64,000 bases of DNA. It comes from an uncultured Bacteroidaceae bacterium (GTDB lineage: Bacteria; Bacteroidota; Bacteroidia; Bacteroidales; GCA-2748055). How positions within the stretch are numbered: position 1 is the first letter of the stretch; every line of letters begins with the position of its first letter. Of this stretch, positions 3,824 to 50,939 are shown one piece after another. The stretch covers positions 49,858 through 113,857 of the forward strand of contig CAYZMH010000003.1 in assembly GCA_964479445.1 (NCBI GenBank), given 5' to 3'. The position numbers and the translations under genes are program-made. The notes under the pieces are model-generated. The model did no database searches. It was not told the origin of the DNA and was given only the letters and a program-made list of their open reading frames with translations.

Positions 3824-3837
3824 GACGGGTTTACAGG

Positions 3838-4839: not shown

Positions 4840-4850
4840 TGGGTTGGTAT

Positions 4851-6002: not shown

Positions 6003-6012
6003 TCTTTTTCGT

Positions 6013-8797: not shown

Positions 8798-8799
8798 AG

Positions 8800-11467: not shown

Positions 11468-11703
11468 GCTTGAAGATCAATTATAAATCCCTAATTTATT
11501 AAAATTAATTACAATCGAAACCCGCTTATGTTTTTAAAAATCAACTTTCCACATTTTATTAAGAAGAGATGATGAAGTAATTCTCAATATATCAAAGGAT
11601 TACATTTTAGATACCGGATTTATCCGTTGTCTGCACTCTTTACTCGCCGGAGAAGCACGAAAAATTTTGTATTTTGGTTTGTTAAAATGCCTAAATCTCC
11701 TTC

Positions 11704-14700
11704 ATGGCTCTGCGTATAGCCAACATGCTGAACATTGAGCAGGAGGAACGGGGAATAGTTTTCCTGTTGCTTACCCAGTCGGTTTTCCTTGGGATTTTTG
11801 CCGGTGCGCTTGATGTAGGGGCCAACGCCCTTTTCCTTGAGCACTACAGGGCGGATCTTATCCCCAGGGCATTCATGCTGTCAGGGATTGTGGGCATATT
11901 ATTCACTTCGCTCTATACCTTTTTTCAACCGCGGATCAGGTTTAAACTTTTTGTCCTGATCAACCTGGTGTTGGTGATCCTGATCACGGGAATTTTATGG
12001 TTCGGATTCAGATTGGTCGCCCAGGACTGGCTGGCTTTTGCGGTGTTTGTTATGATGGGTCCGCTGATTATTGTGAGTATGCTGGGATTCTGGGGAACAG
12101 CCGGGCGGTATTTTACCCTGAGAGAAGGAAAAAGGTTATTTGGTGTTATTGATACAGGTTCAGTCATTGGAATGATCCTGGCATTTTATGCCGTTCCCGT
12201 GCTGCTTCAGTTTGATTTCAGGGTGGAGAATACGCTGCTAATCGGGTTTCTCAGCCTGGTGTTTGCGCTGTTTTTTCAGCTGATCATAATAAACCGGTAT
12301 GCATTCAAGGCCCGGAAAGAGATGGTAAAACCGGTCACGCGTAAAACGGGATTCCTTGACCTGTTCAAAAACCGGTATACTACCATGATGGCTCTTTTCG
12401 TGGTGTTAAGTGTGGTGACGGCTTTTTTTATTCATTACAGCTTTTTATGGGTAACGGAGTCCAACTATACTGACAGCCGTGAGCGAGCCAGTTTTATCGG
12501 TGCTTTTTTCGGTACGATGATGGTATTCACGATCATTGTAAAAAGTACCCTGTATGGCTGGATGATGAAGAATTACGGGTTACGGGTGGCCCTGCTGGTA
12601 TCCCCGGTGTTGTTACTGGTTATGACGGTGATTGCAGCGATCGTGGGGGGTGCTTTTGGCTTTGCGGCCGAGGCGGCCAGCTTCACCTTTTTCTTTCTGG
12701 TCATATCGCTCTCCAAGCTGTTCAATAAATCCCTGAAAGATGCTATTGAAGGTCCTTCCATGAAGATACTCTACCAGTCGCTGGACTCTTCTGTGCGGTA
12801 TGATGTCCAGGCACGGATTGACGGGGTGGTCAATGAGCTGACAGCTTTCTCAGCGGGATTGCTTATGAGCGGATTGCTGGTCCTGGATTTTATAAAGATC
12901 ATTCACTTCAGCTACATTCTTATTGCTATTCTGGTAGCCTGGGTGATCCTGGGAATATCCCTCTATCGATCTTACCGCCACACGCTGAATGCTTCCCTGT
13001 CAACAGCCCGGTCGGTTCAGCCGGCAGACGCTCCCCTCCGTTTCCTGGATATACCTGCCGCCTTCAAGGTCCCCATGGTATATGAGATGATGCATGTACA
13101 TCCCTATTTTTACCATATTGCCGCTGACAGGGGAATGGACGGGTTGCTTGAATCTGAAAAGGAGACAAACCGGTTGCATGCCTGGGAATTTATTCAGACA
13201 ACCCTTTTCGGGGGTCCGGATGATCTCCCGGAGAAAGTACGAAAGAGCCCTCTCCACCCTGAATTGGAGCGGATGATGGAGCGGTACGAAAAGGTGCGAA
13301 ATTTTCCCGGGGGTGATCTGAACGAAGCCTTTCATTCGAGTGATGAAGAGAGGGTACTGGCTGCCCTGTATGAAACGGTTCGCAGAAACGACCGGAGCCA
13401 GGTTCCGAATCTTATCATGCTGTTACGCGCCAGGGACAGAGTCCTGAGGGCTGCTGCCATAGAGGCAGCCGGGAAGATGAGGATTGATGAGATGGGAAGT
13501 TATCTCGTGGAAACCCTCGGTGATCGCCGTCTGTATGCGGTTACCTGGTCTTCCCTGGTAAAAATGGGTGAAGCGGTCATTGACAATCTAGAAAATCTAT
13601 TTCACAAAACAGGGGTTGATGAGCGGGTACAGGTTCGGACCGTGCGGGCCATGGCTGCAATCGGTGGTGAGAAAGCGCAGCGGTATATGCTGGCCAAGAC
13701 CAATTATCACCAGCGGGATGTCAGGGAGGCTGCGGTGAACGGATTGTTTCATTCCGGTTACCAGGCAGATGCTTCATCCCGGCTGATGCTGGAACAGGAG
13801 ATTTTTTCCACGGTAGAAGCAGGGGCGTGGAACATTGCTGCAGAATATACTATCCGGGAAAATGATCCGGAGAACGGATTGTTGCAGGCGATCCGTGAGG
13901 AGATTGACCGGAACAATCAGTTCCTGTTTGAGCTCCTGGGAATAACTTATGATCGCCATGCCATCGGTCATATACGGGAGAATCTCCGGGAGGCGGATAA
14001 CCAGGACAGCAGTTATGCACTGGAGTTGATGAATCTGGTAGTGGATGACCAGGTAAAGAGTTACCTGGAGCCCTATTTTGATGACCGTCCGGTTCCGGAT
14101 AAGATCCGGCAGCTGCAGGTTGAAATGCCTGTTGAGATACTATCATACGGGGAGGTACTGAGGCAGATCATTGTAAGGGATGGATTGTATTTGGGAACTT
14201 TCATCCGGGCATGTGCCATTGAGGCGGCGGGCAGGCTGGAGGACCTGCAGCTCCGTGATCACCTGGCTGCCCAGGTTTTTCATCCGGAGCCGGTGATCGT
14301 GGAGTCTGCCGCGGCCGTATTAACCGACCGGTATCCCGAGGACTACGGGGAGATCTCTGCCCGTGTTGGAGTTCCTTTTAAGGATATTTTGGAACAATCG
14401 GGATTCCATCACCTGCGTTCTGCACACCCCGGAATCAAACTGGTTCTGGAACTCAAGCAGTGGCCTCTTTTTCGGGCAGTGCCCCTGGAGTCTTTACTCA
14501 GGCTTGCCCGCCTGATCAGGAAGAATGGTGAGACCGATCTCCGGGATTTAACGCGGATTACCTATCTTTATTCCACCGTCCCGCAGACCGGTGAAGCAAT
14601 AAGTAACGGGTGGATCGCTGTAATTCCGGCGCATTCCGGTCTGGCAGAGCGCATTGAAGGTTTTAAACGTAACAACGAGGTCACCATTTATCAAACCGGG

Positions 14701-14814
14701 TTGCAGGATACAAGGATTTTATTATTTGATGACCATGATCTGCTGAACTGTTTTGCCCGGCAGTTTGGTAGTGAAAGAGACGGTGCTGAAATGGCCGGAC
14801 TGGAGGAAAACTAA
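11704..14814 (+). CDS. multidomain membrane protein: N-terminal polytopic MFS/ATP-ADP-translocase-like domain, central HEAT-repeat region, C-terminal cyclic-nucleotide-binding-like domain
   Basis: 1036 aa. The first ~430 aa consist of hydrophobic helices. The middle has HEAT/PBS-lyase-like repeats (RVLRAAAIEAAGKM, VRTVRAMAAIGG, VREAAVNGL, IRACAIEAAGRL). The C-terminus (LKQWPLFRAVPLESLLRLARL) resembles the start of a cNMP-binding domain. Confidence 0.6.
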   Translation: MALRIANMLNIEQEERGIVFLLLTQSVFLGIFAGALDVGANALFLEHYRADLIPRAFMLSGIVGILFTSLYTFFQPRIRFKLFVLINLVLVILITGILWFGFRLVAQDWLAFAVFVMMGPLIIVSMLGFWGTAGRYFTLREGKRLFGVIDTGSVIGMILAFYAVPVLLQFDFRVENTLLIGFLSLVFALFFQLIIINRYAFKARKEMVKPVTRKTGFLDLFKNRYTTMMALFVVLSVVTAFFIHYSFLWVTESNYTDSRERASFIGAFFGTMMVFTIIVKSTLYGWMMKNYGLRVALLVSPVLLLVMTVIAAIVGGAFGFAAEAASFTFFFLVISLSKLFNKSLKDAIEGPSMKILYQSLDSSVRYDVQARIDGVVNELTAFSAGLLMSGLLVLDFIKIIHFSYILIAILVAWVILGISLYRSYRHTLNASLSTARSVQPADAPLRFLDIPAAFKVPMVYEMMHVHPYFYHIAADRGMDGLLESEKETNRLHAWEFIQTTLFGGPDDLPEKVRKSPLHPELERMMERYEKVRNFPGGDLNEAFHSSDEERVLAALYETVRRNDRSQVPNLIMLLRARDRVLRAAAIEAAGKMRIDEMGSYLVETLGDRRLYAVTWSSLVKMGEAVIDNLENLFHKTGVDERVQVRTVRAMAAIGGEKAQRYMLAKTNYHQRDVREAAVNGLFHSGYQADASSRLMLEQEIFSTVEAGAWNIAAEYTIRENDPENGLLQAIREEIDRNNQFLFELLGITYDRHAIGHIRENLREADNQDSSYALELMNLVVDDQVKSYLEPYFDDRPVPDKIRQLQVEMPVEILSYGEVLRQIIVRDGLYLGTFIRACAIEAAGRLEDLQLRDHLAAQVFHPEPVIVESAAAVLTDRYPEDYGEISARVGVPFKDILEQSGFHHLRSAHPGIKLVLELKQWPLFRAVPLESLLRLARLIRKNGETDLRDLTRITYLYSTVPQTGEAISNGWIAVIPAHSGLAERIEGFKRNNEVTIYQTGLQDTRILLFDDHDLLNCFARQFGSERDGAEMAGLEEN

Positions 14815-14831
14815 ACTATAGTAGCACGGAG

Positions 14832-16853
14832 ATGCAAAAACGAACGACCATATTTAAACAGTTGATTCTGAACATTGTAATTCCGGCCCTGCTGGCTTTA
14901 CTGGTGCTGGGTATCCTGAATGTGCAGCAGACCTGGAGCATCCTGGAGGAGGCCAGTGAGAACAAGAGCCAGATTATCAGTGAGGAGATTCGCCAGATCC
15001 ACGAATTGCAGGATATGGCCATGCGTATCCTGGAGCAGCAAATCGATCCGGAGATGCGGCGATACAGTGAAATCCTGGTTCAGGATGTGTTTGAAGAGAC
15101 CGAGGGCATCGAGGAGGCCGACCTGGAGGCCATACGACGGGAGATTGGTATGAATCCCCGCCTGCAGGACATTTATGTGATCGATCGTAACGGAGTGGTG
15201 GTTAATACAACCTTCAAGAAAGATTTGGGTTTGAACCTGTTTGAATTCGGACCCGAGCACCAGGAATTGCTGGAATCGGTCTGGAATCGGGACACCTTTC
15301 TCAGCGAAAAATTTACGGTGGAACACACCACGAAGCGATTGAAGAAATTCACTTATATGCCAACACAGGACGGGAGGTACCTGATTGAACTGGGTGTTTA
15401 TTCGGCGCGTGCTGACAGTATTTTACATTTTGTTCAGGAACGCATGAATTCCATGTCCAATGTGCAGAAGAATATTATGTCGGTGGACCTGTTCATCGGC
15501 ATGGAGAGTCCCATATCCCTGAACGGGGATGGGAAGATCTCAGATGATCATATGGATATTTACAGGGAGGTGCTTCAATCGCGAACGCGTCAAACTCTCG
15601 ATGACCGTGACAGCGATCCTCCCAGGCGGTACGATTATATTTTTCTCGACCGGAAAAACACGAGCCTTTACAGGGAATCGGTGATCCGGATCGTATCGGA
15701 TATCAGCGAGGAGATTATGGTATTGCGCCGGGAACTGCTCAAATTCCTGCTGGTATTCAGCGTTACTGTTGCGATCGTTGTCGTATTGCTATACCGCAAA
15801 ACCCGGGTGATCACAGATCCCATTAAAAAATTGGTTTCCAATGTAAACCGGATTACCGCCGGGCATTTGAAAGAGCGTGCCGAGGTAGTGGGCAACAACG
15901 AGATCACCTCGCTTTCTGAAAAATTCAACGCCATGATCGCCCAGCTGGAGAGTTATTACTACGAGCTGGAAGAGAAGGTGCGGGAACGTACGGCCGAGGT
16001 AGTGGCCCAGAAGGAGGAGATTGAGGCTCAGCGTGACACGCTTCAACAGCAGCGTAACATGCTGGCGGAATTTAACGATTCGTTACAGAGAGCCTATACG
16101 GAGATAGAAGACAGCATTCACTACGCCAGCCGGATCCAAAATGCAATCCTGCCCCCCGGGGATTACCTGGAAAGGGTGATTCCCAATGGTTTTTTCTATT
16201 ACAGGCCAAGGGACATTGTTTCGGGTGATTTCTACTGGGTGGCCTCCAAAGAGGACCTGGTGATCGTTGCCGCGGTGGATTGTACCGGGCACGGTGTGCC
16301 CGGAGCTTTCATGTCCATTGTCGGGAATAATCAGCTCAACTATGCACTGAATGTGAAGAATGCCACCAATCCATCCGATATTTTGCATATACTGGATGAG
16401 GGAGTAACCAATACGCTGCGTCAGACAGAAGACGAATCGGTGCAGGATGGTATGGATCTTGCGCTTGTAACGATCGACCAAAAGAAACAGATCCTCCGGT
16501 ATTCGGGTGCCTTCAATCCGCTCGTTATGGTTCGCGGGGGAGAGCTTACTCGGATCAAGGCCGACCGCATTCCGATTGGCGGCCATATTCTTCAGACAAA
16601 TAAGCGTTTTACGACCCATGAGATCCCTTATAAGAAGGGTGATATGATCTACCTCTTTTCCGATGGATATCCTGATCAGTTCGGAGGGCCGAAGAAAGGA
16701 AAGTATCGCTCCGGTAAATTTGTGAAGTTTTTACAGGCCCTGTATGATCAGTCGCTCGGGGAGCAGTATGAAAGCCTTGACCGGGAGTTGAAAGAGTGGA
16801 TGGGGGACGAACCCCAGGTAGATGATATACTCGTGGTCGGCATCAGGTTGTAG
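14832..16853 (+). CDS. membrane sensor with an extracytoplasmic domain, HAMP, coiled coil and a PP2C/SpoIIE-type serine phosphatase domain
   Basis: 673 aa. Two TM segments (aa ~10-30 and ~300-320) bracket a ~270 aa loop. After the HAMP region the SpoIIE/RsbU signature is present (ASRIQNAILPP, DCTGHGVPGAFMS, SDGYPDQFG). Confidence 0.8.
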   Translation: MQKRTTIFKQLILNIVIPALLALLVLGILNVQQTWSILEEASENKSQIISEEIRQIHELQDMAMRILEQQIDPEMRRYSEILVQDVFEETEGIEEADLEAIRREIGMNPRLQDIYVIDRNGVVVNTTFKKDLGLNLFEFGPEHQELLESVWNRDTFLSEKFTVEHTTKRLKKFTYMPTQDGRYLIELGVYSARADSILHFVQERMNSMSNVQKNIMSVDLFIGMESPISLNGDGKISDDHMDIYREVLQSRTRQTLDDRDSDPPRRYDYIFLDRKNTSLYRESVIRIVSDISEEIMVLRRELLKFLLVFSVTVAIVVVLLYRKTRVITDPIKKLVSNVNRITAGHLKERAEVVGNNEITSLSEKFNAMIAQLESYYYELEEKVRERTAEVVAQKEEIEAQRDTLQQQRNMLAEFNDSLQRAYTEIEDSIHYASRIQNAILPPGDYLERVIPNGFFYYRPRDIVSGDFYWVASKEDLVIVAAVDCTGHGVPGAFMSIVGNNQLNYALNVKNATNPSDILHILDEGVTNTLRQTEDESVQDGMDLALVTIDQKKQILRYSGAFNPLVMVRGGELTRIKADRIPIGGHILQTNKRFTTHEIPYKKGDMIYLFSDGYPDQFGGPKKGKYRSGKFVKFLQALYDQSLGEQYESLDRELKEWMGDEPQVDDILVVGIRL

Positions 16854-16878
16854 CAATGCGACACCAACATATGTTTGT

Positions 16879-19800
16879 ATGAGTGATACCTCTTTATCCG
16901 TCCGGGACAACCCCGATCGGTATGCCAATCCTTTCCCGGGGTTACGGCCTTTTAATGAGAAAGAGTCGGACCTTTTCTTTGGCAGGGAAGAACCAAGCCG
17001 TTCGGTCCTCCAGTCCCTGAAGAGCAATAGTTTCGTGGCCGTAACAGGGGCCAGTGGCAGCGGTAAATCCTCCCTGATTTACTGTGGTGTGGTACCGCTT
17101 CTCCAGGAGGAGGGTTCTGATGCCTGGCATGTAGTGGGTATAAGACCGGGCGCAAATCCCCTTCACAACCTGGTCTCGGCCATGAGCCATGCTTTCCGGG
17201 TAGATTTTGACCACCAGGATGCGGAGCGGCTGGAGGAGGGACAATCGGGGGCTGTTTCGATGTTCCGTGAGAAGAAATTAACCGGGAAGCCGGTAGTGAT
17301 CATCATCGATCAGTTTGAGGAGATTTTTCGCTTTACCTCGGATGATGATGATCAGCACAGTGCAGAACGGGTGCGTTTCATAGAGTTTATTTTCGAAGCC
17401 ATATCAGCTTCTGATCTAAAAGTGCGTGTATTACTCACCATGCGGTCGGATTTTATCGGGGAGTGTTCGGCTTACCAGGATCTTACTGCTCTGATCAACC
17501 GGAGTAACTACCTGATACCCCAGATGACCCGGGAGGATTTCCGTCGGGCCATTGAGGGGCCGGTTCACCTGCGGGGTGTTCAGATTGAAGACGGACTCGT
17601 GGAGCAGTTGCTGGATGAAGTGGGAGAAAATACAGATCAGTTGCCGGTCTTGCAGCATGCGTTAATGCGTACATGGGATTACTGGCTGTTACAGAAGGAT
17701 CCTGAAAAGCCCATCTCCACCGGGGATTACGAAGCCATTGGCCGCATGGATAAGGCCCTGTCGGATCATGCCAACGAGGCTTACGATGAGTTGGATGAAA
17801 GGCAACGGGGGATCTGTGAAAGCATGTTCAAAACCCTGACAGACAAGGGAGGGGATAACCGGGGCGTACGGAGGCCCACCCTGGTGAGCCGGGTGGCAGA
17901 GATCGCACAGTGCTCTGCCGGGGAAGTAATCGAAGTGGCCGGGGTATTCCGGTCATCCGGACGTACGTTTATCACGCCTTACCAGCCTGTGGAAGTTACC
18001 CCGGGAACGGTGATCGATATATCGCATGAGTCGTTGATGCGCATCTGGGATCGGTTGCGGTTCTGGGTGGATGAGGAGGCTGCTTCGGTACAGATGTACC
18101 GCAGGTTATCGGAGGCTGCTCGTATGTTCCAGGAAGGTAAAACCGGTTTATGGCGTCCGCCGGATCTGCAGCTGGCCCTGAACTGGAGGGAGAAACAGAA
18201 GCCGACGCTTGCCTGGGCGATGCAATACGATCCCGCCTTTGAAAGAGCGATGGTGTACCTGGAGACCAGTGACCGGGAGTACCGCAAGGAGGAGGAGAAC
18301 AAGATCAGGTTACAGCGCAGGCGGTTGCGGGTGACCCGGATCTTTGCGCTGGTGCTGGGTTTCATTGCGATTATTGCCCTTGGGCTTTTCTTATGGACAC
18401 GCGATCTCCGGATTGATGAGGAACGTCAGCGCGAACTGGCTGAGCAGAAAAGTGCGGAGGCTGAACGCCAGAGGCAGGCTGCTGAAGAGTCGGCGGAAAA
18501 TGCAAGGCTTCAGCAGCGTATTGCCGAGGAAGCATCCCGGCAGGAAGAACAGCAACGAAAAGAGGCGGAAGCAGCCTCCCGGCTTGCAGAGCAGCGCCGT
18601 ATTGAGGCGGAGGAGAACTTGCAAATGGCTCTAGAACAGGAGCGGATTGCACGGGAGAACCTTGAACTGGCCAATGAGCGGGAGCGGGAAGCCAATGAAC
18701 AGCGCCGTCAGGCTGAAGAAGCGCGAAAGGAAGCCTTCACGCGTCGCATGCTTTCCATTGCCAAATCCATGGCCGTGAAGTCACAGCAGATTGATGACGA
18801 TCCCGACCTGAAAGGACTGCTGGCTTACCAGGCATTTCTTTTCAATAACGAATACGGAGGACCCCTGCACGATGTGGATATTTATTCAGGATTGTATGAG
18901 GCAAATAAAACCCTGCGCGGAGAGAAATACAACGTATACGCAGGTCATAACCAGACGGTACGCTCTATCAGGTTTGCCTCGCAGGATGACAGGTTTTACA
19001 GTGCCGGCAGTGACGGACAGATCCTGCGCTGGTCACTGTCGGATACCGGTAAAAGCTACGAAACACTTTACAACCGTTCCATGGTGATAGAGGCCCTGGC
19101 TCTTGGTCAGAATGACCGGTGGCTTGCCGCGGGTACAGACGGCCAGGGTATTCTCCTGTTCGACCTGGATTCCGGGCAGGAGGAGCCACGCGTTATGAAC
19201 GGACACAATGGCATCATTAGGGATGTGGAAATTCATTCAGAAGGAGAGGTAGTATACAGCATCGGCCTGGATCAAACGATCATGGCATGGAGAACCGGCG
19301 GGGGGTCCCCCTCCGTGCTTGCACGCTCCGGGAACCGCTACAGCGATATTGCCGTATCGCCGGACGGCCGGTATCTTGCTGCCAGTGACCGTTCAGGAAC
19401 CATCCATATCTATCCCGCTAACGGAAGCGGGGATACCCTGCACCTGGAGGGTCATGTGATCAATCCGGTTTTCAGTCTTGATTTCAGCGAGGACGGACAG
19501 TATCTTGCTGCAGGGGATATGGGGGGCAATGTTCGTTTGTACCGCACCGGGACGTGGGAGGAGGAGGCCCGGTTGCGCGGAAATGATGCCCGTGTCAAGG
19601 AGGTCAGATTCAGTCCGGATTCAAAATACCTGGCCTCCACAGGATATGATGGCAGGGTGTTGATGTGGAAGATGGCCGATCTTAACAGTTCTCCCATTGT
19701 GATGGAAGATAACCGCGGTTTTGTGTTCACCGTGGATTTCAGTCCCGACAGCCGTTACCTGGTCAGTGGCAGCAGCGAAGCCAGCCGCCTGGTGGCCCGT

Positions 19801-19941
19801 CCGGTTCGCGCCGATCTCCTGGTGGATAAGATCTGTTCGCTGCTGGGGCGTAATTTCACCCGCGAGGAGTGGGAGATATACGTGGGACCGGATATTACTT
19901 ACCGTGAGACATGTCCAACCAATGAAAACGAAAACCAGTGA
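16879..19941 (+). CDS. STAND-type P-loop NTPase with an internal TM helix, a Glu/Arg/Gln-rich coiled coil and C-terminal WD40 repeats
   Basis: The start was moved to the ATG at 16879 (MSDTSLSV) so it no longer overlaps the upstream gene. Walker A is GASGSGKSS and Walker B is VVIIIDQFEE. A hydrophobic helix IFALVLGFIAIIALGLFLW is followed by a ~115 aa E/R/Q/A-rich stretch and then repeated WD40-like units (SAGSDGQILRW, AAGTDGQGILLF, ASDRSGTIHIY, AAGDMGGNVRLY, STGYDGRVLMW). Confidence 0.8.
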   Translation: MSDTSLSVRDNPDRYANPFPGLRPFNEKESDLFFGREEPSRSVLQSLKSNSFVAVTGASGSGKSSLIYCGVVPLLQEEGSDAWHVVGIRPGANPLHNLVSAMSHAFRVDFDHQDAERLEEGQSGAVSMFREKKLTGKPVVIIIDQFEEIFRFTSDDDDQHSAERVRFIEFIFEAISASDLKVRVLLTMRSDFIGECSAYQDLTALINRSNYLIPQMTREDFRRAIEGPVHLRGVQIEDGLVEQLLDEVGENTDQLPVLQHALMRTWDYWLLQKDPEKPISTGDYEAIGRMDKALSDHANEAYDELDERQRGICESMFKTLTDKGGDNRGVRRPTLVSRVAEIAQCSAGEVIEVAGVFRSSGRTFITPYQPVEVTPGTVIDISHESLMRIWDRLRFWVDEEAASVQMYRRLSEAARMFQEGKTGLWRPPDLQLALNWREKQKPTLAWAMQYDPAFERAMVYLETSDREYRKEEENKIRLQRRRLRVTRIFALVLGFIAIIALGLFLWTRDLRIDEERQRELAEQKSAEAERQRQAAEESAENARLQQRIAEEASRQEEQQRKEAEAASRLAEQRRIEAEENLQMALEQERIARENLELANEREREANEQRRQAEEARKEAFTRRMLSIAKSMAVKSQQIDDDPDLKGLLAYQAFLFNNEYGGPLHDVDIYSGLYEANKTLRGEKYNVYAGHNQTVRSIRFASQDDRFYSAGSDGQILRWSLSDTGKSYETLYNRSMVIEALALGQNDRWLAAGTDGQGILLFDLDSGQEEPRVMNGHNGIIRDVEIHSEGEVVYSIGLDQTIMAWRTGGGSPSVLARSGNRYSDIAVSPDGRYLAASDRSGTIHIYPANGSGDTLHLEGHVINPVFSLDFSEDGQYLAAGDMGGNVRLYRTGTWEEEARLRGNDARVKEVRFSPDSKYLASTGYDGRVLMWKMADLNSSPIVMEDNRGFVFTVDFSPDSRYLVSGSSEASRLVARPVRADLLVDKICSLLGRNFTREEWEIYVGPDITYRETCPTNENENQ

Positions 19942-21014
19942 TGATACGAACACCGATAGTATTGATCCTGCTCTCTTTATGGACTGCAACTGCTGCTGCT
20001 CAGCAGGAGTGCGCCTTTATCCTGGAAGAGTCGCAGGAGCTGTTTGATGCAGGATTGATCGAGGATATCCCGGAACGGCTGGAGGGGTGCCTGGAAAAGG
20101 GATTTACCCGGGAGGAGGAACTCCAGGCATATAAGCTGGTCATATTAAGCTATTTGTTTGATGATAATATCGAGCAGGCCGATGCATATATGGCTCGCTT
20201 CCTGGATCAATTCCCGGCGTATGAACCGGTGGCCACAGATCCCAAAGAGTTTATCCTGTTGCTGGAAACCTATGACCGTGAGCCCCTCCTGGCTGTAGGG
20301 GGCGGAATGGGAAGCAGTTTATCATTTGCCTATCCGCTGGAGCAGTTGGGCACCCATAACACAGAACAGCATAAAGGCAGGTATGTACCCGGTCGCGCCG
20401 GGTTTCACCTGGGAGCAGTAGCCACGAGAAAGATAACTCCCTCATGGCGTGTCAGTGCGGAGTTCCATTTCTCCAACGTGGCTTTTCATCATACCCTGAC
20501 CGATGAAACGGGTGTTACCGGCTTTACCGGGGAGATCACCGATTTTACCCGCCTGGCCTATGAAGAGGTTCAGAATTGGCTTGAAGTGCCCCTGGGGGTG
20601 GAGTACTATCCTTTTTTATCCGGTTTCAGACCCTACCTGGAAGGGGGGATTGCCCCGGGATTACTGCTAACTGCAACTGCACAGGGAGAGAGAAGATATA
20701 CGCAGACGGGCGATATCCGGTATGATCCCATTACGGTTTCCAATGTAAATGTAGGCGGTTTAAGACGGCGCATGAATGTATGGGCCTATGCCGGCGGGGG
20801 TGTACAGTATAATTTCGGAACGGGAATTCTCTACCTGAACCTGCGGTACCGGTTTAATATGTTCAACCAGTCAAAACCCGGAGGGATTAACTATGAAAAC
20901 CCGGAGTTGCTCTGGGAGGTCTATTATGTTCCCGATGATTTATTGTTAAACCATGTTTCAGCCACGGTGGGATTTCTCCTGCCTGTATACCGGCCTAAAA
21001 AGATCGAGCAATAG
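19938..21014 (+). CDS. secreted protein with an alpha-helical (TPR-like) N-domain and a C-terminal outer-membrane beta-barrel domain
   Basis: 358 aa. The signal peptide is MMIRTPIVLILLSLWTATAAAQQ. The C-terminal ~240 aa show alternating amphipathic strands with aromatic ends, as in OMP_b-brl/PorT-like proteins. The start overlaps the upstream stop (ATGA). Confidence 0.6.
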   Translation: MMIRTPIVLILLSLWTATAAAQQECAFILEESQELFDAGLIEDIPERLEGCLEKGFTREEELQAYKLVILSYLFDDNIEQADAYMARFLDQFPAYEPVATDPKEFILLLETYDREPLLAVGGGMGSSLSFAYPLEQLGTHNTEQHKGRYVPGRAGFHLGAVATRKITPSWRVSAEFHFSNVAFHHTLTDETGVTGFTGEITDFTRLAYEEVQNWLEVPLGVEYYPFLSGFRPYLEGGIAPGLLLTATAQGERRYTQTGDIRYDPITVSNVNVGGLRRRMNVWAYAGGGVQYNFGTGILYLNLRYRFNMFNQSKPGGINYENPELLWEVYYVPDDLLLNHVSATVGFLLPVYRPKKIEQ

Positions 21015-21015
21015 T

Positions 21016-22197
21016 ATGAAAACGCGTTTACCTATCACGATCCTTTCCTTTATCCTGGTATTTGCAGTCTCCTGCGAGCAAACGGAGGAGGAACCTGCTC
21101 GGGGATTTGTTAAATTCTATGGCGGATATCAGGCAGATGCCGGCAACGATGTACAGGTTTTACCCGATGGCGGGTATGCCCTGACCGGGGCGATGAATCC
21201 CGATTCGGTGCGCCGGATGTTCCTCCTGGTTACGGACGCCCGGGGAAATCAACTGGACTTTTCGCCCGTATTTTACGGCGGTAATCATGAGACATCGGGA
21301 AACAGCCTGCTTGTTCTTGATGACGGTTACCTGCTTACCGGTTTTTTGAAAGACACGCTGCCGGGAGGGGAGGTAAAAACAGACGCATATATCGTTCGAG
21401 CGGGTAAGACCGGTGAGGAGATATGGAGCCAGACCTATGGGGCCGATGGAGATGATGTGGCGTTTCATGCTGTGCAGCGAAGAAGCGGCGGATTTGTAGT
21501 GGCCGGTGCCAGGGACAACCCCGATCAGCAGGTTCCTTGGGTTTTCATGATCGATCAAGAGGGCAATGAACTGGGTTACGAATTCAAAGGAAATGCCACC
21601 AATGCAGATGACCGGGCAGGATTTCTTTTACCTGCCGGAGAGGGCTATTTGTGTGGGGCTACCTATGATGACGGGGCTTATGATGGAACCGATTTTTACC
21701 TGATCTACCTGGATGAACAATGCGGCGTTTATGACACCCGTCCCATGGGCACAGATTATGATGATCACACCCGGTGTGTATTTCGTTACGGGGATGCTTT
21801 TGCCCTTATGGGTTATACAGAAAACCTCACCAGCGGTGTGAATGAGTTATCGGTATACACCTTCGGGGTGGGTTCAAATTCGATCATAGACCTTGAGCGA
21901 CTTGCAACTATTTCACGCTCAGGAAGGGACCTGACAGGGGGGGATTGTGTGGTAAGGGATGATGGTGTGATTGCCGTGGCAGGCACCTTTGAAGAGAATG
22001 AAAACAGGGATATGATGCTCCTGTTCCTGAAAGATGGCGTGGAGTCGGGACGTGTCACCTACGGTGAACTGGGTAATCAGTCGGGGCATGGCATTGCCAA
22101 AACGCCCGATGGCGGTCTGGTTATGGCCGGAACCAATGGGCTGGAAGGAAACAGTGTGATCTCCCTGGTAAAAACCGATGCGAAAGGAGCGTTGTAA
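21016..22197 (+). CDS. lipoprotein with a repeated beta-propeller-like motif; function unknown
   Basis: The start was moved to MKTRLPITILSFILVFAVSC (lipobox Cys). An acidic stretch EQTEEE follows the Cys and resembles the Bacteroidota surface-export signal. About 7 repeats of a D-G-G-Y-x-x-x-G type motif are present (DGGYALTG, DDGYLLTG, SGGFVVAG, GEGYLCGA, DGVIAVAG, DGGLVMAG). Confidence 0.6.
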   Translation: MKTRLPITILSFILVFAVSCEQTEEEPARGFVKFYGGYQADAGNDVQVLPDGGYALTGAMNPDSVRRMFLLVTDARGNQLDFSPVFYGGNHETSGNSLLVLDDGYLLTGFLKDTLPGGEVKTDAYIVRAGKTGEEIWSQTYGADGDDVAFHAVQRRSGGFVVAGARDNPDQQVPWVFMIDQEGNELGYEFKGNATNADDRAGFLLPAGEGYLCGATYDDGAYDGTDFYLIYLDEQCGVYDTRPMGTDYDDHTRCVFRYGDAFALMGYTENLTSGVNELSVYTFGVGSNSIIDLERLATISRSGRDLTGGDCVVRDDGVIAVAGTFEENENRDMMLLFLKDGVESGRVTYGELGNQSGHGIAKTPDGGLVMAGTNGLEGNSVISLVKTDAKGAL

Positions 22198-22218
22198 ATC
22201 GTGGAAAAATTTGGTGTT

Positions 22219-25200
22219 ATGAAAACCGGAAATTCATTTCTTTTTGTCTTGCTGCTCCTGGTACTGACCGGACCTCTGTTTGGCCAGACTGCCACCCTGA
22301 GTGAGAACATCGGTGATGAGGGGGATATAAGGAACGGGACCGTATACCAGGTGGTTGTGACAGTGACCAGTGATACGTTCGTGGCCGGGGTGACGCAGAA
22401 CACACAGGTTAACTCAGATTTCCTGGATGCCCTTAAAACCGGTGAAGCAGCATGGGATGGGGTGGTGGACCAGATGGATCACACAGATTTTACGTTGGCA
22501 CAGGACGATACCGTGCTGACCATAGATGTGGATCCTTATCCTGATTATTACATTGATGCGGATGATCAGATCGGGCTGACCATTCCTTCCAATGCACTGA
22601 AATCGGGAAGCAGCCTGGTTGCCAGCAACAACATCCAGATCTCCAACCTGCTTCCATCCGCGGTTTTTTCCGGGACCTTCACAGGCAACCCGGATGAGTC
22701 GGCCATCCGCAGCGGAGATCAGACCCTTGTTATAACCCTTGACCATAATCGCTGGCATCCGGATATCGGATCCAGTACCCCCCTGTTGAATGCGGTAAAG
22801 GCTATTTTCACAGGCCCCTCTTCGTTTGATAATCTGCTGGACCACATGGAATCGGGGGATCTTGCCCTGAACGGTGACCGGACCGTATTGACCGTTACTT
22901 TCCGGGGGCGTTTTAATTTTTATATCGGCAGCGACATAACCGTCCAGGTGGATCTAAACAGCTCCCCGCAGCTTTTGGAGGTACAGGAAACCATCCAATC
23001 AGCAACCACGGATTTCACCATCGGGAATGAGGACCCGGTTATTTCGGTTGTCCCCTCATCCTATTCGGAGCAGGTTGTTCGCAGCACCGGGTTCCAGTTT
23101 GAGATTTCCCTTGAAGGTGATGCCTGGGAGAATCTATTGAGCAGCAGCTTTGAAGATCGCATCACCGGGGATACTGCCTGGAACAACCAGGTGCAACCTT
23201 CCGGCTTGAGTGTAACACGGACCAATGATTCGGTGGTTACGGTGACGGTGAGTTCATCGGCCGGTTATGACATTGCGGTGAACGATACCGTGACGGTCAC
23301 CGTGGACGGGGGAGATCTCGAATTTACCGGAGCCGGAACCTACCCGGTGAGCGGACGCATTGTGATCACCCCCGCTGCGGCATCGGTCAGTGCCGGAGGC
23401 ACCATAACCGGCGGGCTCACAGAGGGTGATATCCGCAACCAATCATACGAAATCACCCTGGGTATATCGGAGGATGCATGGGTCACCGACCTGATGTCCG
23501 ATCCGGTGAAACGCCGGACGCTTGTGGAAAACATTACTGCATCTCCCGCAGAGACCGGCTGGGATGATCTGATCAGCGAAATCCTGGGAACTGATGACGG
23601 TCTCTCCAACCTATCCCGGAACGGGGATGTGATCACCATAACGGTCCCGGCAGTTTCTGATTTCAACATCATCGAGGACATCTCCCTCTCAGCGGGTGTA
23701 CCTCCCGAGCTTTTGCAGTACTCGGGGAGTTCACTGTCAGATAACGGTTTTACCACCCTCTCGGCACTTCCTGCCACGCTCACTATTGCCAGTTCTCCTC
23801 CATCCCTGGCAGAAGATAACCTCGACGGGGCGGTACTCACCGCCACGCTGGAAGAGGAGACCTATGACGACGGAACATTTGATGTTTCCAATTTCTCTTT
23901 TTCACCGTCCATTTCCGGTCTTTCCATTGATGCAGGCACCTTCCAGTATGTCGGTGCGGATGCCATCACCTTCAACCTTCTCTACAGCGGGGATATGGAT
24001 ACCGACCAGGCCTTTGGTTTACGCATTGGTGCGGCTGAACTGACTACCGGTCCTGCGTTAACCAGCAGCAATACGCTGTCGGTTACAGCGCAGATCGAAC
24101 CGGAGATCACCGGGGTGGATATTCCCGATCAGCCCATGGGTATCGGGGCTGTTGTGGAGGCGGAGATAACGGTGGTAAACGACCAGGGATTCACATTCAG
24201 CTATCATGACGGTACCATTGCCGGACGATTGCTGGACAGTGTAGTGCGCGATGATCCGACAACCTACCTGGGATATTTCACGGTACAGGAGGGTTCCAAT
24301 CCGCAATACACAGCCGCAGAGCCGATCCCGGTGACTGATCTGGCGTTGCAGAACGGCACCATTCAGGGTGTCGCCTTTACCGGTTCGATCACTAATCCGG
24401 GTGACCTGCTGGATTCACAGCGCCCCGTTGTGGACCTGGTGGAATTTGACGCAGGCAGCTATATTATCGGGGACATGGTAGAGGCCATTGTGCATGCGGG
24501 TGAAGCCGGACTGGATTTTGACATGGCCGGTTCGCATATCAACAATGTTGGCTTCTCCGGACCTAACATATCGGTGAGCGAGATCGGATCCGGGATTTAC
24601 CGGGTTCGCTATACAGTTGAAGCCGGGGATGACGATGTGACCGGCGTCATTCCCGTTTCGGTGGTGATGACCGACGGGGCAGGTAATAATTCCGCACCCA
24701 ATACCACTGCAAGCGGCACCTCCCCGGTTATTGATGCCAACAAGCCGGAGATCACGGATGTGGAAGTGCTAACCAGCGGGATCCAGGTTCCCGGCAATAT
24801 GATCCGGATTCGGATCACGGCCACAGAGACTGGACTGGATACGGTATCCGGAACAAAGGTCAACGGGGTTTCCGATCCGATGCAGCTCGGGTTTACCGAT
24901 AACGGGGATCATACCTACCTCATCGAATATGTGGTTGGGGCTGATGATAACGAGGTGGCCGCAGGTAACCTGGCGGCTCGCTTTATCCTGGAGGATGGTT
25001 CCGGGAACACCCGTACCCACACCACCCTTCCCGGAAATGACATTTCCATTGTGACCAGCGGTCCCACTGTTTATCTTTTCGGAGGCGGGGAGATCTGCCG
25101 GGGAGACTCTTCGCTCATCCAGGTGGATATCAACGGCGGTACACCTCCTTACGATGTGGTGATTACGGATGGCAGCAACGATTCAACCTTTCTTGATTTG

Positions 25201-28197
25201 CCGGGTTCATTCAGTTTCCGGGTTAAACCGAAAAGCACCAGAGATTATTCCATTCAAACGGTGGTGGATGACCTGGGAATTGCGGGGAATTATTCGGGTA
25301 GTGCGCATGTGGAGGTTCACCCGTTACCTGCGCCACAGATCATGAATGCACGTACCACGTTTCTCATCTCGGAGGAGGGGATCAATCTGAAAGCTCTGCC
25401 ACAGGGCGGGATCTTTACCGGTCCGGGTGTGGAGACCTCAACGAGCCGGTTTTTCCCGGAAGTGGCGGGGGTAGACGGTTCACCGCACCCGATATTGTAT
25501 ACCTACGAAGATGAGCATGGCTGCACAGGAACCGATCTTACGCAGTTTACGGTTGTTTCCGAGGTAGCCACGCTCACCGTGCCGGATACCATTTGTTTTA
25601 ATGCCCCGCCGGTTGCCGTGGAGGGGAGCAACAGCACCGGTGGTCCGGGCTCCTTTAATTTATTCAGGGTCAAGGGGAATACGGATGTTTTTATCACCGA
25701 TGGATTGGTGGATTCATCGCTGACTGATGACCGGGCGCACCTGCTGCCCGAGGAGCTTGAACGGGGTACCTACCGGGTTGTTTATCACTTCAAATTCCAG
25801 GATTCCATTCCGCGGACCATTGATGAGCTCTTTTTTCTTGATGAGATACCGCCCATCCGGTTTACGTTGCGTCCTGACGATGCCGTTTGCCGGAATGAGG
25901 ATGCTTCATCCCTGGAGACCAATCTGGATGAGAACGAGGGCACTTATCAATACTCAGGATCCGGCGTTGAGTTTATACCCGGATCGGGATACTCGTATAA
26001 CCCGGGGCTGGCAGATATCGGAACCAACAGGATCCTGTACCAGTTTGTTGCTCCTTCTGGTTGCGCGAGGAAGGATTCCATCGAGGTGATCAATTATGAT
26101 GTGCCGGGGGTAGATTTCACCCCGACCGGTATCTGCATACCCGAGAGCGGAGGTCCGGTAGGATTTATAAACACAACCGACAAAGAGGACCTGGTTGCAG
26201 AGTGGCGATGGGAGTACGGGGATGTGAACAGTGGCAGTGCGAATACCGATACCTTTGCGGTGAAAACCGACCCGGTACATGATTATACCGGTCCGGGTTT
26301 ACGAACCGTTTCCTTGGAGATCATTACCCTGAACGGGTGTGTTGCGAGCCGTGACAGTTCCATTGATTTTGCCGACAAACCCATCGCGGATTTTCGATGG
26401 GTAAGTGATTGTTATGTTGAGGGGGCCGGGGTGGACCTGGTTAATGAATCTGCGTCGGAGCGGACCTGGGATTCATTTAAATGGCTTTTTGCACAGGCCG
26501 GAGGTGTGGCATTTGACTCCACGATTACACAGGATCAGCAGGATATTGCGTATACTTTCCCCGACATGGCCAACTACGATATTTCACTGATCGCGGTAAA
26601 TGATAAGATGTGTTCCGATACACTGCACAGTACCCTGGTGCTCAAGCCCAATATTACATTGAAAGACACATCGTTCCTGGAGGGTTTTGACGGGAGCGAT
26701 GTGAAATGGGATACCCGTTCGGATACCGCGACCCAGAATAGTTGGGTACGGGGTGAACCTGATTTCTCGGGTTTTACCCCCGAGGCCGGAGACTACGCTT
26801 TCTACACTGATTTCCCCGAGAATCCCGACCAACGGGGTGTGGAGCAATCCTGGATTCAGAGTCCCTGCTTTGATTTCCGTGGAATGGAGCGACCCATGAT
26901 AAGGATGGATATCATGCGCAGTTTTGATTTTAACCGGGATGGAGCGGTACTGCAGTATACTCTGAACAATGGGCTTGACTGGATCACAGTTGGAAATATC
27001 GGGGAGGGGATCTCCTGGTACAACTCGTTTGATATAAAGGAGGAGCCGGGAGGCAGTTCCATTGGCTGGTCGGGCGAAGCCCTGTTTGATCCGGATACCA
27101 CATGGGTGCAGGCCGCTCACGACCTGGATATGCTCAGGGATCAAGAGACGGTGATCTTCCGTGTAATTTACGGGACCGATGGTGCTTCTGTGGTAGACAA
27201 TGAAGGATTTGCCTTTGATAATATTTACCTGGGAGAACGATCCAAGCGGGCCCTGATCGAGCATTTTACCAATTCCTCTGCCGATGCTGCACCGGAAGCC
27301 GATGGTGCAATTGATGATTTTACGGATAACAATAACCTGGATGTGGTTAACCTGCAATATCATATGCATTTCCCGGGAGCAGATCCCATGAATGAGAACA
27401 ATCCGTCTCCGGCGGCTTCCCGTTCGTTTTACTACGGGGTGAACCAGGTGCCGTTTGCCCTGATGGACGGGGGATTTGACAATAGTTACCGGTACGACTT
27501 TGCACCGGGTGAGCCCGATGGATCCTCGCTCAGGCAATTGACCCTGGAGAGTCCCTCGTTTGATATAGACCTGCGTTTCTGGCTGTATGACACCCGGATG
27601 CGGGTTCGAAGCCACATTACTGCACTGGAGGATATGGGTGAAAAGAATTTGGTTCAGTATATCGTTGTGGCGGAGAAGCAGGTGACCTCCTATGAAGGGG
27701 AGAACGGGGATACCGAGTTCAATAACGTAGTGCTGGGAATGCTGCCGAGTCCGGCCGGAACCCTCTATGAGAAAGCCTGGACACGCGATGAATCCATGGA
27801 AATATCTCATACCTGGCCGTATGCTCATGTGGAGGACCTCTCCGACCTGGTGGTGGTTTCTTTTATCCAGGAGCGTGGGACCGGAAAGGTGCTACAGGTG
27901 TCGGCTGCCCCGGAGCCCGAAGTTCCCCTGGGTGCGGGTCACCAATTCGCCCGGGAGGGAATATCCCTCTATCCCAATCCTGTCAGGGAGCAGATGCATG
28001 TGGACCTGGACCGGAACGTACCCTCTTCCCGTCTTGAAATAACAGACCTGTCCGGTCGTACTTTAATGCAGCAGGAGGTGATCCGGGGTGAAGAACAAAT
28101 TATTCAGACGGCTCATCTGGAACAGGGATCTTATCTCCTTTTGTGGAAAGAGGGGAATCGCCTGCTGGACCGGCTGCCGTTTATTAAGGTACGCTAG
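22219..28197 (+). CDS. giant secreted T9SS cargo protein (adhesin-like; repeat modules, SprB/Ig-like and PKD domains, MAM/lectin-like domain, T9SS C-terminal sorting domain)
   Basis: ~1992 aa from the ATG at 22219 (the track starts at GTG 22201). The signal peptide is MKTGNSFLFVLLLLVLTGPLFGQ. PKD-like segments include WRWEYGDVNSGS. A GGTPPYDV SprB-repeat-like segment is present. The C-terminus (LYPNPVREQMHVDL...GSYLLLW...FIKVR) is a type-A T9SS CTD. Confidence 0.85.
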   Translation: MKTGNSFLFVLLLLVLTGPLFGQTATLSENIGDEGDIRNGTVYQVVVTVTSDTFVAGVTQNTQVNSDFLDALKTGEAAWDGVVDQMDHTDFTLAQDDTVLTIDVDPYPDYYIDADDQIGLTIPSNALKSGSSLVASNNIQISNLLPSAVFSGTFTGNPDESAIRSGDQTLVITLDHNRWHPDIGSSTPLLNAVKAIFTGPSSFDNLLDHMESGDLALNGDRTVLTVTFRGRFNFYIGSDITVQVDLNSSPQLLEVQETIQSATTDFTIGNEDPVISVVPSSYSEQVVRSTGFQFEISLEGDAWENLLSSSFEDRITGDTAWNNQVQPSGLSVTRTNDSVVTVTVSSSAGYDIAVNDTVTVTVDGGDLEFTGAGTYPVSGRIVITPAAASVSAGGTITGGLTEGDIRNQSYEITLGISEDAWVTDLMSDPVKRRTLVENITASPAETGWDDLISEILGTDDGLSNLSRNGDVITITVPAVSDFNIIEDISLSAGVPPELLQYSGSSLSDNGFTTLSALPATLTIASSPPSLAEDNLDGAVLTATLEEETYDDGTFDVSNFSFSPSISGLSIDAGTFQYVGADAITFNLLYSGDMDTDQAFGLRIGAAELTTGPALTSSNTLSVTAQIEPEITGVDIPDQPMGIGAVVEAEITVVNDQGFTFSYHDGTIAGRLLDSVVRDDPTTYLGYFTVQEGSNPQYTAAEPIPVTDLALQNGTIQGVAFTGSITNPGDLLDSQRPVVDLVEFDAGSYIIGDMVEAIVHAGEAGLDFDMAGSHINNVGFSGPNISVSEIGSGIYRVRYTVEAGDDDVTGVIPVSVVMTDGAGNNSAPNTTASGTSPVIDANKPEITDVEVLTSGIQVPGNMIRIRITATETGLDTVSGTKVNGVSDPMQLGFTDNGDHTYLIEYVVGADDNEVAAGNLAARFILEDGSGNTRTHTTLPGNDISIVTSGPTVYLFGGGEICRGDSSLIQVDINGGTPPYDVVITDGSNDSTFLDLPGSFSFRVKPKSTRDYSIQTVVDDLGIAGNYSGSAHVEVHPLPAPQIMNARTTFLISEEGINLKALPQGGIFTGPGVETSTSRFFPEVAGVDGSPHPILYTYEDEHGCTGTDLTQFTVVSEVATLTVPDTICFNAPPVAVEGSNSTGGPGSFNLFRVKGNTDVFITDGLVDSSLTDDRAHLLPEELERGTYRVVYHFKFQDSIPRTIDELFFLDEIPPIRFTLRPDDAVCRNEDASSLETNLDENEGTYQYSGSGVEFIPGSGYSYNPGLADIGTNRILYQFVAPSGCARKDSIEVINYDVPGVDFTPTGICIPESGGPVGFINTTDKEDLVAEWRWEYGDVNSGSANTDTFAVKTDPVHDYTGPGLRTVSLEIITLNGCVASRDSSIDFADKPIADFRWVSDCYVEGAGVDLVNESASERTWDSFKWLFAQAGGVAFDSTITQDQQDIAYTFPDMANYDISLIAVNDKMCSDTLHSTLVLKPNITLKDTSFLEGFDGSDVKWDTRSDTATQNSWVRGEPDFSGFTPEAGDYAFYTDFPENPDQRGVEQSWIQSPCFDFRGMERPMIRMDIMRSFDFNRDGAVLQYTLNNGLDWITVGNIGEGISWYNSFDIKEEPGGSSIGWSGEALFDPDTTWVQAAHDLDMLRDQETVIFRVIYGTDGASVVDNEGFAFDNIYLGERSKRALIEHFTNSSADAAPEADGAIDDFTDNNNLDVVNLQYHMHFPGADPMNENNPSPAASRSFYYGVNQVPFALMDGGFDNSYRYDFAPGEPDGSSLRQLTLESPSFDIDLRFWLYDTRMRVRSHITALEDMGEKNLVQYIVVAEKQVTSYEGENGDTEFNNVVLGMLPSPAGTLYEKAWTRDESMEISHTWPYAHVEDLSDLVVVSFIQERGTGKVLQVSAAPEPEVPLGAGHQFAREGISLYPNPVREQMHVDLDRNVPSSRLEITDLSGRTLMQQEVIRGEEQIIQTAHLEQGSYLLLWKEGNRLLDRLPFIKVR

Positions 28198-46113: not shown

Positions 46114-46121
46114 CGATCCTG

Positions 46122-50924: not shown

Positions 50925-50939
50925 TTTAATTGAAGGGAA

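Follow-up and report, generated by a model that had tools for sequence, protein, structure and literature searches.

In the full-text literature that we searched, the nSTAND1 family is described only as an NTPase of conflict systems (PMC8195603), and in STAND proteins the C-terminal repeats sense, with the effector on the N-terminal side (PMC7159879). In two preprints of 2026 the DUF4062 (NIR) domain has been shown experimentally to be a TIR-like NADase in anti-phage defense, and fused DUF4062-NACHT-WD40 proteins include human TEP1 and NWD1 (10.64898/2026.05.01.722283, 10.64898/2026.09.04.749371). A periplasmic sensor domain has been predicted for one STAND protein that is the target of a diversity-generating retroelement (PMC10907252). 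Here we analyze, with computational evidence throughout, a block of six genes built around an nSTAND1 gene in a 64,000-nt stretch of DNA from an uncultured Bacteroidaceae bacterium (contig CAYZMH010000003.1); we call this whole stretch the window and use its numbering. Comparison of related loci shows a conserved gene module, together with consistent topology signals that would place a WD40 sensor in the periplasm beside outer-membrane and surface partners, while the direction and purpose of signaling are things that we infer. We see about an even chance that the block is an outside-in, trans-envelope STAND (NLR-like) receptor with a surface antenna, whose output in relatives is NAD+ depletion.

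The six open reading frames (ORFs), named g1 to g6 in 5' to 3' order, are all on the plus strand and span 11704-28197:

11704..14814, plus strand: g1, MFS/TLC-like transporter with HEAT repeats and a C-terminal region like those that bind cyclic nucleotide monophosphates (cNMP)
14832..16853, plus strand: g2, sensor phosphatase with two transmembrane (TM) helices, HAMP and PP2C/SpoIIE
16879..19941, plus strand: g3, inner-membrane-anchored nSTAND1 NTPase with TM helix, rod and WD40
19938..21014, plus strand: g4, signal peptide, periplasmic helical domain and small outer-membrane beta-barrel
21016..22197, plus strand: g5, lipoprotein with a single beta-propeller
22219..28197, plus strand: g6, 1992-aa cargo of the type IX secretion system (T9SS) with a type-A C-terminal domain (CTD)

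An earlier note on this DNA had described six tightly spaced plus-strand genes with such domains, and both ORF reading and profile searches bear this out. Its spacings were also correct, at 17 nt, 25 nt, a stop/start overlap between g3 and g4, 1 nt and 21 nt, but the letters it gave for the overlap (ATGA) were wrong: the g3/g4 junction reads cagTGATGAtac, so that the overlap is GTGA at 19938 (with a GTG start) or TGATG (with the ATG at 19941). An alternative start of g3 is possible at an in-frame ATG upstream, at 16822.

Comparison with described systems

The nSTAND1/Avs-type systems, TEP1 and NWD1 share with g3 the PF20703 NTPase family and a C-terminal WD40 sensor. In the DUF4062-NACHT-WD40 proteins TEP1 and NWD1 the TIR-like DUF4062 lies on the N-terminal side, whereas in most relatives of the module it is encoded by a separate, translationally coupled gene. 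Unlike Avs-type systems, g3 has a TM helix and a rod of about 20 nm that are predicted to put the WD40 domain outside the cytoplasm, and its obligate partners are a barrel, a lipoprotein and a T9SS cargo; the module also sits in a housekeeping context, draws no PADLOC call and, in the window, is free of an effector. A second likeness is to FecA-FecR-FecI and the Bacteroides SusC-like/anti-sigma/extracytoplasmic-function sigma systems, where the periplasmic N-domain of an outer-membrane protein faces a single-pass inner-membrane protein that carries a cytoplasmic signaling domain, as in g3. Unlike those systems, the core module has neither a TonB-dependent transducer (one does adjoin a paralogue in Runella) nor an anti-sigma/sigma pair, and its cytoplasmic module is a STAND ATPase.

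As an analogy of function, the closest is the Esr pathway of oral Actinobacteria, in which a surface WD40 propeller on a long Ig-repeat filament is the proposed sensor of an extracellular antagonist (an epibiont) and signals inward to defense, like the direction proposed here (bioRxiv 10.64898/2026.09.08.750141). Esr differs in its monoderm host, in carrying the propeller on a secreted filament, and in running through kinase/FHA phosphorylation to transcription and Esx secretion, with no STAND protein, outer membrane or T9SS. In the full-text literature that we searched, which leaves subscription-only papers outside, we find no account that ties a STAND protein or system to a barrel of the outer membrane together with a lipoprotein and a T9SS cargo. 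The earlier note's impression that the combination matches no named system thus stands in that literature, and the module is apparently undescribed in Bacteroidota.

A four-gene core is conserved in Bacteroidota

The check that the earlier note had proposed, synteny across Bacteroidota, was run from both sides of the g3/g4 junction and speaks for its interpretation. Genomic context was looked up for four g4 family members with 50-28% identity, and in all four an nSTAND1-WD40 gene lies directly upstream and a gene of about 400 aa plus at least one T9SS cargo lie downstream. A scan with the g4 alignment over one genome per GTDB species gave 30 loci, all from uncultured Bacteroidales or Bacteroidota metagenome-assembled genomes (MAGs). 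Because these loci had been chosen through g4, a reciprocal test was made from g3 homologues with 47-59% identity. The loci reached in this way, among them Cytophagales-like contigs and one closed genome of 4.8 Mb, had the barrel gene, the gene next to it and the T9SS cargo in five of five cases. When all window proteins were compared by tBLASTn with every related locus used for the order table, the g3-g4-g5-cargo order and its tight spacing proved constant in all of the roughly 37 distinct related loci (Bacteroidales and Cytophagales-like), wherever DNA is present. This order, which goes beyond chance, persists down to about 27% identity, with the stop/start overlap and with differing flanks; the synteny is seen in two orders and includes the five loci found from g3. 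The flanking genes go by clade: the window's clade has Vut_1 and ODP/Psd, L014 has Lon-ParE-ParC, and L004 has metabolic genes unrelated to these, which argues that the module persists beyond local vertical synteny.

Upstream of this core the loci fall into four layouts, in which X denotes an additional gene described below:

Layout A, g1-g2-g3-g4-g5-cargo: the window and five loci
Layout B, g1-g2-X-g3 and onward: six loci
Layout C, g1-X-g3 and onward: about 20 loci, the Cytophagales-like ones included
Layout D, g3-g4-g5-cargo only: about five loci

g1 is upstream in most related loci, and g2 occurs in only about 11 of them, all in one Bacteroidales subclade; a minimal clade (L004, L014, L015, L023) has g3-g4-g5-cargo alone. 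The conserved unit is g3-g4-g5-cargo, usually with g1, and g2 is an accessory of a subclade. The six-gene system of the earlier note thus holds for the four-gene core and usually for g1, but not for g2.

One apparent occurrence outside Bacteroidota was rejected. Locus L039 (GCA_046538755.1, labeled Thiohalospira sp.) lies in a gammaproteobacterial MAG bin, and its contig carries the g3-g4-g5 module with a cargo that has a T9SS sorting domain; because of this cargo, the contig is probably mis-binned Bacteroidota.

g3 is predicted to span the inner membrane and reach toward the outer membrane

The g3 product matches PF20703 (nSTAND1) at 332.7 bits (cutoff 27.1), and the match takes in positions 1-374 of the 379 in the profile. 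The translation has both Walker motifs intact, A as GASGSGKSS and B as VVIIIDQFEE, and both are kept in the listed homologues. With one TM helix and a WD40 match as well, the protein is the membrane-anchored STAND NTPase with WD40 repeats that the earlier note had called. It has four parts:

16930-18138, plus strand: part 1, cytoplasmic NTPase (nSTAND1 profile)
18340-18396, plus strand: part 2, TM helix (single hydrophobic segment)
18397-18801, plus strand: part 3, charged helical rod of about 134 aa (composition, length conservation)
18802-19938, plus strand: part 4, pre-WD helical domain, WD40 propeller and tail with a Cys pair (WD40 Pfam match)

A single TM helix near aa 500 is found in 27/27 full-length g3 homologues, with 6-7 K/R within the preceding 15 residues. 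Since there is one helix, a positive-inside flank and an ATPase that must be cytoplasmic, the C-terminal half is expected to lie outside. Between the TM helix and the pre-WD helical domain, 26 of 28 sequences have a spacer of 134-141 aa. Its sequence identity is low (about 33%), 61-79% of its residues are E/K/R/Q/A/D, and Pro and Gly are almost absent. Such a spacer would be a rigid helix whose length is fixed and comes to about 20 nm if it is helical throughout. The layout-D clade (L004, L029) has a longer linker in place of the rod, 168-173 aa in length and containing 32-36 Pro+Gly residues, which resembles the TonB spacer. The C-terminal tail has a Cys pair (C986/C1012 in g3) in 89% of g3 sequences, and in the three that lack it both cysteines are absent jointly, the pattern expected of a disulfide in an oxidizing compartment. 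The WD40 propeller is accordingly placed, as a prediction, in the periplasm near the outer membrane. The trans-envelope arrangement proposed by the earlier note is thus supported on four counts: conservation of the TM helix and its flank, rod length, covariation of the Cys pair, and conservation of the g4 N-domain (below).

A natural split of g3 into separate NTPase and WD40 proteins was considered for database entries of about 550 aa and rejected, as their ends vary within the low-complexity rod. These entries are truncation or frameshift artifacts; many carry a 'partial' flag or belong to long-read contigs prone to frameshifts. In L036 (closed 4.84-Mb contig ctg15142_664x_c) a single in-frame TAA at 11615-11617 stands right after the TM helix of the g3 homologue, and the frame continues past it through the charged rod into WD40; possible readings are a pseudogene, an error of sequencing and a site of readthrough.

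The outer-membrane barrel, the lipoprotein and the giant cargo

The g4 product has an N-terminal signal sequence by hydropathy and matches Pfam OMP_b-brl_2 at 28.8 bits (cutoff 27), with no match to any NCBIfam model. An AlphaFold2 (AF2) model (pLDDT, the model's confidence score, 88) shows an N-domain of 4-5 helices followed by a small barrel of about 10 strands, for which the fold matches are OmpW, OmpA and Pla. This agrees with the earlier description of an outer-membrane beta-barrel. The two parts are:

20001-20273, plus strand: periplasmic helical domain with two invariant Cys (AF2)
20274-21011, plus strand: beta-barrel (AF2, Pfam)

Mean pairwise identity is 59% in the N-domain versus 34% in the barrel. 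That the helical domain is far better conserved than the barrel indicates a conserved periplasmic protein contact, and its invariant cysteines, C25 and C51, are predicted to form a disulfide. The family is small (46 clusters, all full length). SprB/SprF and PorP-like pairs likewise place a T9SS cargo beside a dedicated outer-membrane beta-barrel, but a role for g4 as a PorP/SprF partner was rejected because it has no match to PF11751 or to NCBIfam PorP-SprF; the g6 CTD is of type A, not type B.

g5 is always directly downstream of g4 in related loci and matches no Pfam or NCBIfam family; by hydropathy it has an N-terminal signal sequence. Its lipobox (...AVSC) is followed by EQTEEE, and acidic residues follow the Cys in orthologues too; acidic residues after the lipid-modified Cys are a surface-export signal in Bacteroidota. 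The AF2 model (pLDDT 91.7) is all-beta, a single beta-propeller, so both the lipoprotein and the propeller-like fold proposed for it earlier hold. A fold search was also tried as a functional lead and set aside, as it returned generic propellers only, with the CylK propeller as the best match in the PDB.

For g6, a T9SS-secreted repeat protein of about 2000 aa had been proposed. The product is indeed 1992 aa long, with a hydrophobic N-terminus at aa 7-25 that reads as a signal peptide by hydropathy, and with a type-A CTD at aa 1917-1980 (PF18962, Por_Secre_tail, 36.9 bits, cutoff 27; TIGR04183, 29.3 bits, cutoff 23). Conservation across loci is, however, limited to the last module of about 430 aa and the CTD. 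The parts of the gene are:

5' of 26659, plus strand: N-terminal ~1480 aa, variable, Ig/PKD-like
26659-27960, plus strand: pre-CTD module, a beta-sandwich plus an Omp28-like half (weak Omp28 match)
27967-28158, plus strand: type-A CTD (Por_Secre_tail / TIGR04183)

The pre-CTD module is conserved in the cargo downstream of g5 in all related loci whose DNA extends far enough to include it. It has 928 representative clusters at E<1e-30, and in 150 of the 150 full-module matches among those listed it lies about 100 aa from the C-terminus, in proteins of 340-4650 aa. The N-terminal part of the cargo varies by lineage, and the domains seen there are cadherin, Ig, PKD, Flg_new and Big_5. A sequence search of the PDB with the C-terminal module gave no meaningful matches. 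On the opposite strand, an ORF of 414 aa (26584-27828, minus strand) lies wholly within g6; its translation looks to be of low complexity and has no homologue support, and it is most likely spurious.

Most relatives encode a candidate effector that the window lacks

In about 26 loci a further gene, X, lies directly upstream of g3 and abuts or overlaps its start. Its product is 454-501 aa long. All eight X proteins examined match DUF4062, above the gathering score in one only (31.1 bits, L010), and their matches to TIR and TIR_2 are weak. Neither the sequence of one X protein nor a profile of X had a meaningful match in the PDB. As DUF4062-NACHT-WD40 fusions are known, X plus g3 can be read as a split form of the same architecture. 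There is no X-like sequence in the 64-kb window and no effector domain in g3. Because layout A is nearest to layout B by sequence similarity, X was most simply lost in the window's lineage. The earlier remark that no classical effector is present is therefore right for the window's lineage only and does not hold for most relatives, which have the coupled TIR-like DUF4062 gene.

The remaining two proteins are probable partners on the cytoplasmic side. g1 has 12 TM helices (aa 18-420, hydropathy) and Pfam matches to TLC (PF03219, ATP/ADP transporters; 28.8 bits, cutoff 21, profile positions 136-491 only) and HEAT_2 (30.4 bits). Among ten g1 orthologues HEAT is found in 10/10, cNMP_binding in 4/10 (best E 1.4e-10), MFS_1 in 4/10 and TLC in 2/10, and Pfam detects no cNMP_binding match in g1 of the window. 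An MFS-HEAT-cNMP protein, as it had been called, is thus confirmed for its 12 helices, TLC/MFS-like character and HEAT repeats; the cNMP part is not detectable in the window protein and appears in four of the ten orthologues. g2 has TM helices at aa 11-29 and 302-320 (hydropathy), with a periplasmic domain of about 270 aa between them, and Pfam places HAMP at 15804-15950, then a coiled coil, then PP2C/SpoIIE at 16254-16847 (all plus strand), in keeping with the inner-membrane sensor with a PP2C phosphatase proposed earlier. Orthology of g2 to SiaA (NF038263), a PP2C phosphatase that regulates biofilms, was rejected: the match reaches 233 bits against a cutoff of 700 and covers only the HAMP-PP2C half, aa 297-672.

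A proposed outside-in receptor and its rivals

We favor signaling from outside to inside because of the STAND paradigm, the coupled NADase-like gene and the variable ectodomain of the cargo. The variable g6 ectodomain, g5 and g4 would together form a surface antenna. Its engagement or damage, by phage, an epibiont, a neighboring cell or a substrate, would pass through the periplasmic domain of g4 to the WD40 propeller, and nucleotide-dependent oligomerization of the cytoplasmic NTPase would then activate the output. In most relatives that output would be the separately encoded TIR-like DUF4062 protein, whose predicted NADase activity would deplete NAD+ and bring on growth arrest or abortive infection. 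The window would hold an effector-less derivative, in which g1 and g2 are the probable remaining partners on the cytoplasmic side.

To our knowledge, every bacterial STAND/Avs/bNACHT receptor characterized so far recognizes phage proteins within the cell. We speculate, tentatively, that the module may be the first bacterial NLR-like receptor to sense outside the cytoplasm, running from an antenna with a polymorphic T9SS-secreted surface protein through periplasmic WD40 and STAND oligomerization to DUF4062-driven NAD+ depletion in most lineages. It is likewise conceivable, though rather doubtful, that depletion is set off before or without foreign entry, by events such as phage adsorption, epibiont attachment or cell contact; the window would then show a derived form that has lost the suicide effector. 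If true, a periplasmic sensor domain would extend the NLR concept to cell-surface sensing, and T9SS surface proteins would be tied to NAD+-depleting immunity or contact-dependent signaling. With more than 3,700 NTPase clusters and more than 900 cargo-module clusters, such biology would be common.

Several observations weigh against this receptor. The matches of X to DUF4062 and TIR fall mostly under the Pfam gathering scores, and its invariant glutamates, E324 and E331, are at most candidates for the published catalytic Glu. The window has no recognizable effector. PADLOC models give no system call, with weak partial matches for g3 and none for g1, g2, g4, g5 or X, and the locus lies among housekeeping genes and not in a defense island. 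Contact between g3 and g4 is suggested by conservation and adjacency alone, and surface exposure of g5 by acidic post-Cys residues that are compatible with the export signal. The partners of more distant paralogues are different ones, namely an eCIS (contractile injection) cluster in one case and a TonB-dependent receptor in another (see below). Finally, the core is evidently workable without X, g1 and g2, as the minimal clade has it, and this fits a structural or inside-out role equally well.

The main alternative, which we nevertheless think unlikely, turns the direction around. Control of the adhesin would run from inside to outside as in LapD-LapG-LapA-LapE of Pseudomonas: g1 (cNMP-binding) and g2 (PP2C) would read cytoplasmic cues and switch g3, whose rod and WD40 domain would hold, release or activate the barrel, lipoprotein and T9SS adhesin, so that attachment, aggregation or gliding is regulated. 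The Lap genes offer a real likeness, as they co-encode a nucleotide-sensing inner-membrane protein, a periplasmic relay, an outer-membrane barrel and a giant repeat adhesin. In favor of such control, the minimal core has no cytoplasmic effector, the N-terminal parts of the cargo are adhesin-like (cadherin, Ig, PKD, Flg_new), a cyclic-nucleotide-binding domain occurs on g1 (in 4/10 orthologues, undetected in the window's g1), and the stable housekeeping position on the chromosome is unlike that of mobile defense genes. But STAND NTPases are ligand-triggered oligomerization switches whose C-terminal repeats sense and do not actuate (PMC7159879), and a TIR-like NADase gene that is translationally coupled to g3 in most loci is hard to reconcile with adhesin regulation. 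Lap also works through c-di-GMP and a periplasmic protease, uses a type I secretion system and not T9SS, and has no homologous proteins; the LapD (GGDEF-EAL) receptor and LapG protease domains are absent from the six proteins and the neighboring genes, and the module offers neither a periplasmic protease nor any other actuator like LapG. If inside-out control were nonetheless true, it would be a new way of regulating giant adhesins.

A passive trans-envelope tether, which would anchor or stabilize a very large T9SS surface protein without any signaling, strikes us as quite improbable. The fixed-length helical spacer, or the Pro/Gly-rich linker of one clade, does recall TolA domain II and TonB, inner-membrane proteins with a long helical or Pro-rich periplasmic spacer, and the propeller, outer-membrane lipoprotein and barrel recall TolB, Pal and OmpA. 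Yet a STAND ATPase of 480 aa with intact Walker motifs would be superfluous to a tether, and the association with TIR-like X and with g1 would be unaccounted for. Unlike Tol-Pal and TonB, the module lacks an ExbBD/TolQR motor, and its proteins are not homologous to TolA, TonB, TolB or Pal; Pfam and NCBIfam searches of the block proteins found neither ExbBD, TolQR or another motor partner nor a peptidoglycan-binding domain.

Equally improbable is the reading of g3 as a canonical anti-phage STAND of the cell interior that is simply tethered to the membrane and keeps its WD40 domain in the cytoplasm, with barrel, lipoprotein and cargo as unrelated neighbors or a separate, vertically inherited adhesin cassette: nSTAND1, WD40 and TIR-like effectors are standard in cytoplasmic conflict systems (PMC8195603) and the closer relatives share the window's flanks, so that part of the synteny is merely inherited, but the single TM helix and cytoplasmic ATPase put the C-terminal half outside, in agreement with flank, Cys pair and rod length, and adjacency with overlap is kept to about 27% identity, across two orders and differing flanks and in all five loci found from g3.

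The wider STAND family

The NTPase part of g3 has relatives in Bacteroidota that number more than 3,700 sequence clusters at least (E<1e-10), many of them from Cytophagales and annotated 'Hat/HatR'. NTPase homologues 46-50% identical to g3 are on record from the cultured Cytophagales Fulvivirga and Chryseosolibacter. Cultured Persicobacter and Runella have more distant paralogues (33-36% identity), in which the NTPase-TM-rod-WD40 plan and a g1-like neighbor are retained. In Persicobacter psychrovividus (pPP2; L041 10843-17042) the g1-like and g3-like (36%) genes lie amid a contractile injection system cluster that includes sheath, baseplate, PAAR and tape-measure genes, and the locus has no g4 or g5. 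In Runella rosea (plasmid unnamed2; L042 10540-29310) genes for STAS, for an anti-sigma antagonist and for a kinase like RsbW precede the g3-like gene (33% identity). After it come genes for a TonB-dependent receptor, then for an MFS protein like g1, a histidine kinase and a SpoIIE phosphatase. The Runella arrangement suggests that partner-switching modules recurrently accompany STAND proteins of the g3 type, and the two neighborhoods suggest that there is a general family of periplasm-reaching STAND proteins with g1-like proteins and varying envelope partners.

Expression signals and neighboring genes in the window

Upstream of the block a divergent Vut_1 gene ends at 11467, and the gap that follows is the only one in the block large enough for a promoter, making it the candidate promoter site:

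11468..11703, no strand: AT-rich intergenic region of 236 nt, 5' of g1

A convergent gene ends 5 nt past g6. Scans of the window for tRNAs and Rfam families gave no matches. Sigma-70 promoter-like sites numbered 18 versus 20.6 in shuffled sequence, hence no excess in a scan made without Bacteroidota promoter types; terminator-like sites numbered 29 versus 19.5 in shuffles, about 2 sd above, but they are located within coding sequence. We treat the whole scan, promoters and terminators, as uninformative.

Just upstream of the module, at 2504-10407 on the minus strand, lies a cluster resembling those of leucine/isovalerate catabolism, with acyl-CoA carboxylase subunits (carboxyltransferase and biotin carboxylase), an enoyl-CoA hydratase and a protein of the HMG-CoA reductase family; the same carboxyltransferase neighbor is found in L002. 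Farther downstream (44929-47972, minus strand, and 48975-54658, plus strand), a hydrogenase pair of the bifurcating type has a sensory-type [FeFe]-hydrogenase-like protein on either side. The first of these two sensory-type proteins (46122-47972) has Fer4, Fe_hyd_lg_C, FeS and PAS domains and adjoins a SpoIIE phosphatase (44929-46113), and the second (52661-54658) is fused to HisKA and HATPase_c; the pair between them is made up of one Nuo51-like (48975-50924) and one Fe_hyd_lg_C/SSU (50940-52664) subunit. This set points to a strict anaerobe with H2-responsive signaling.

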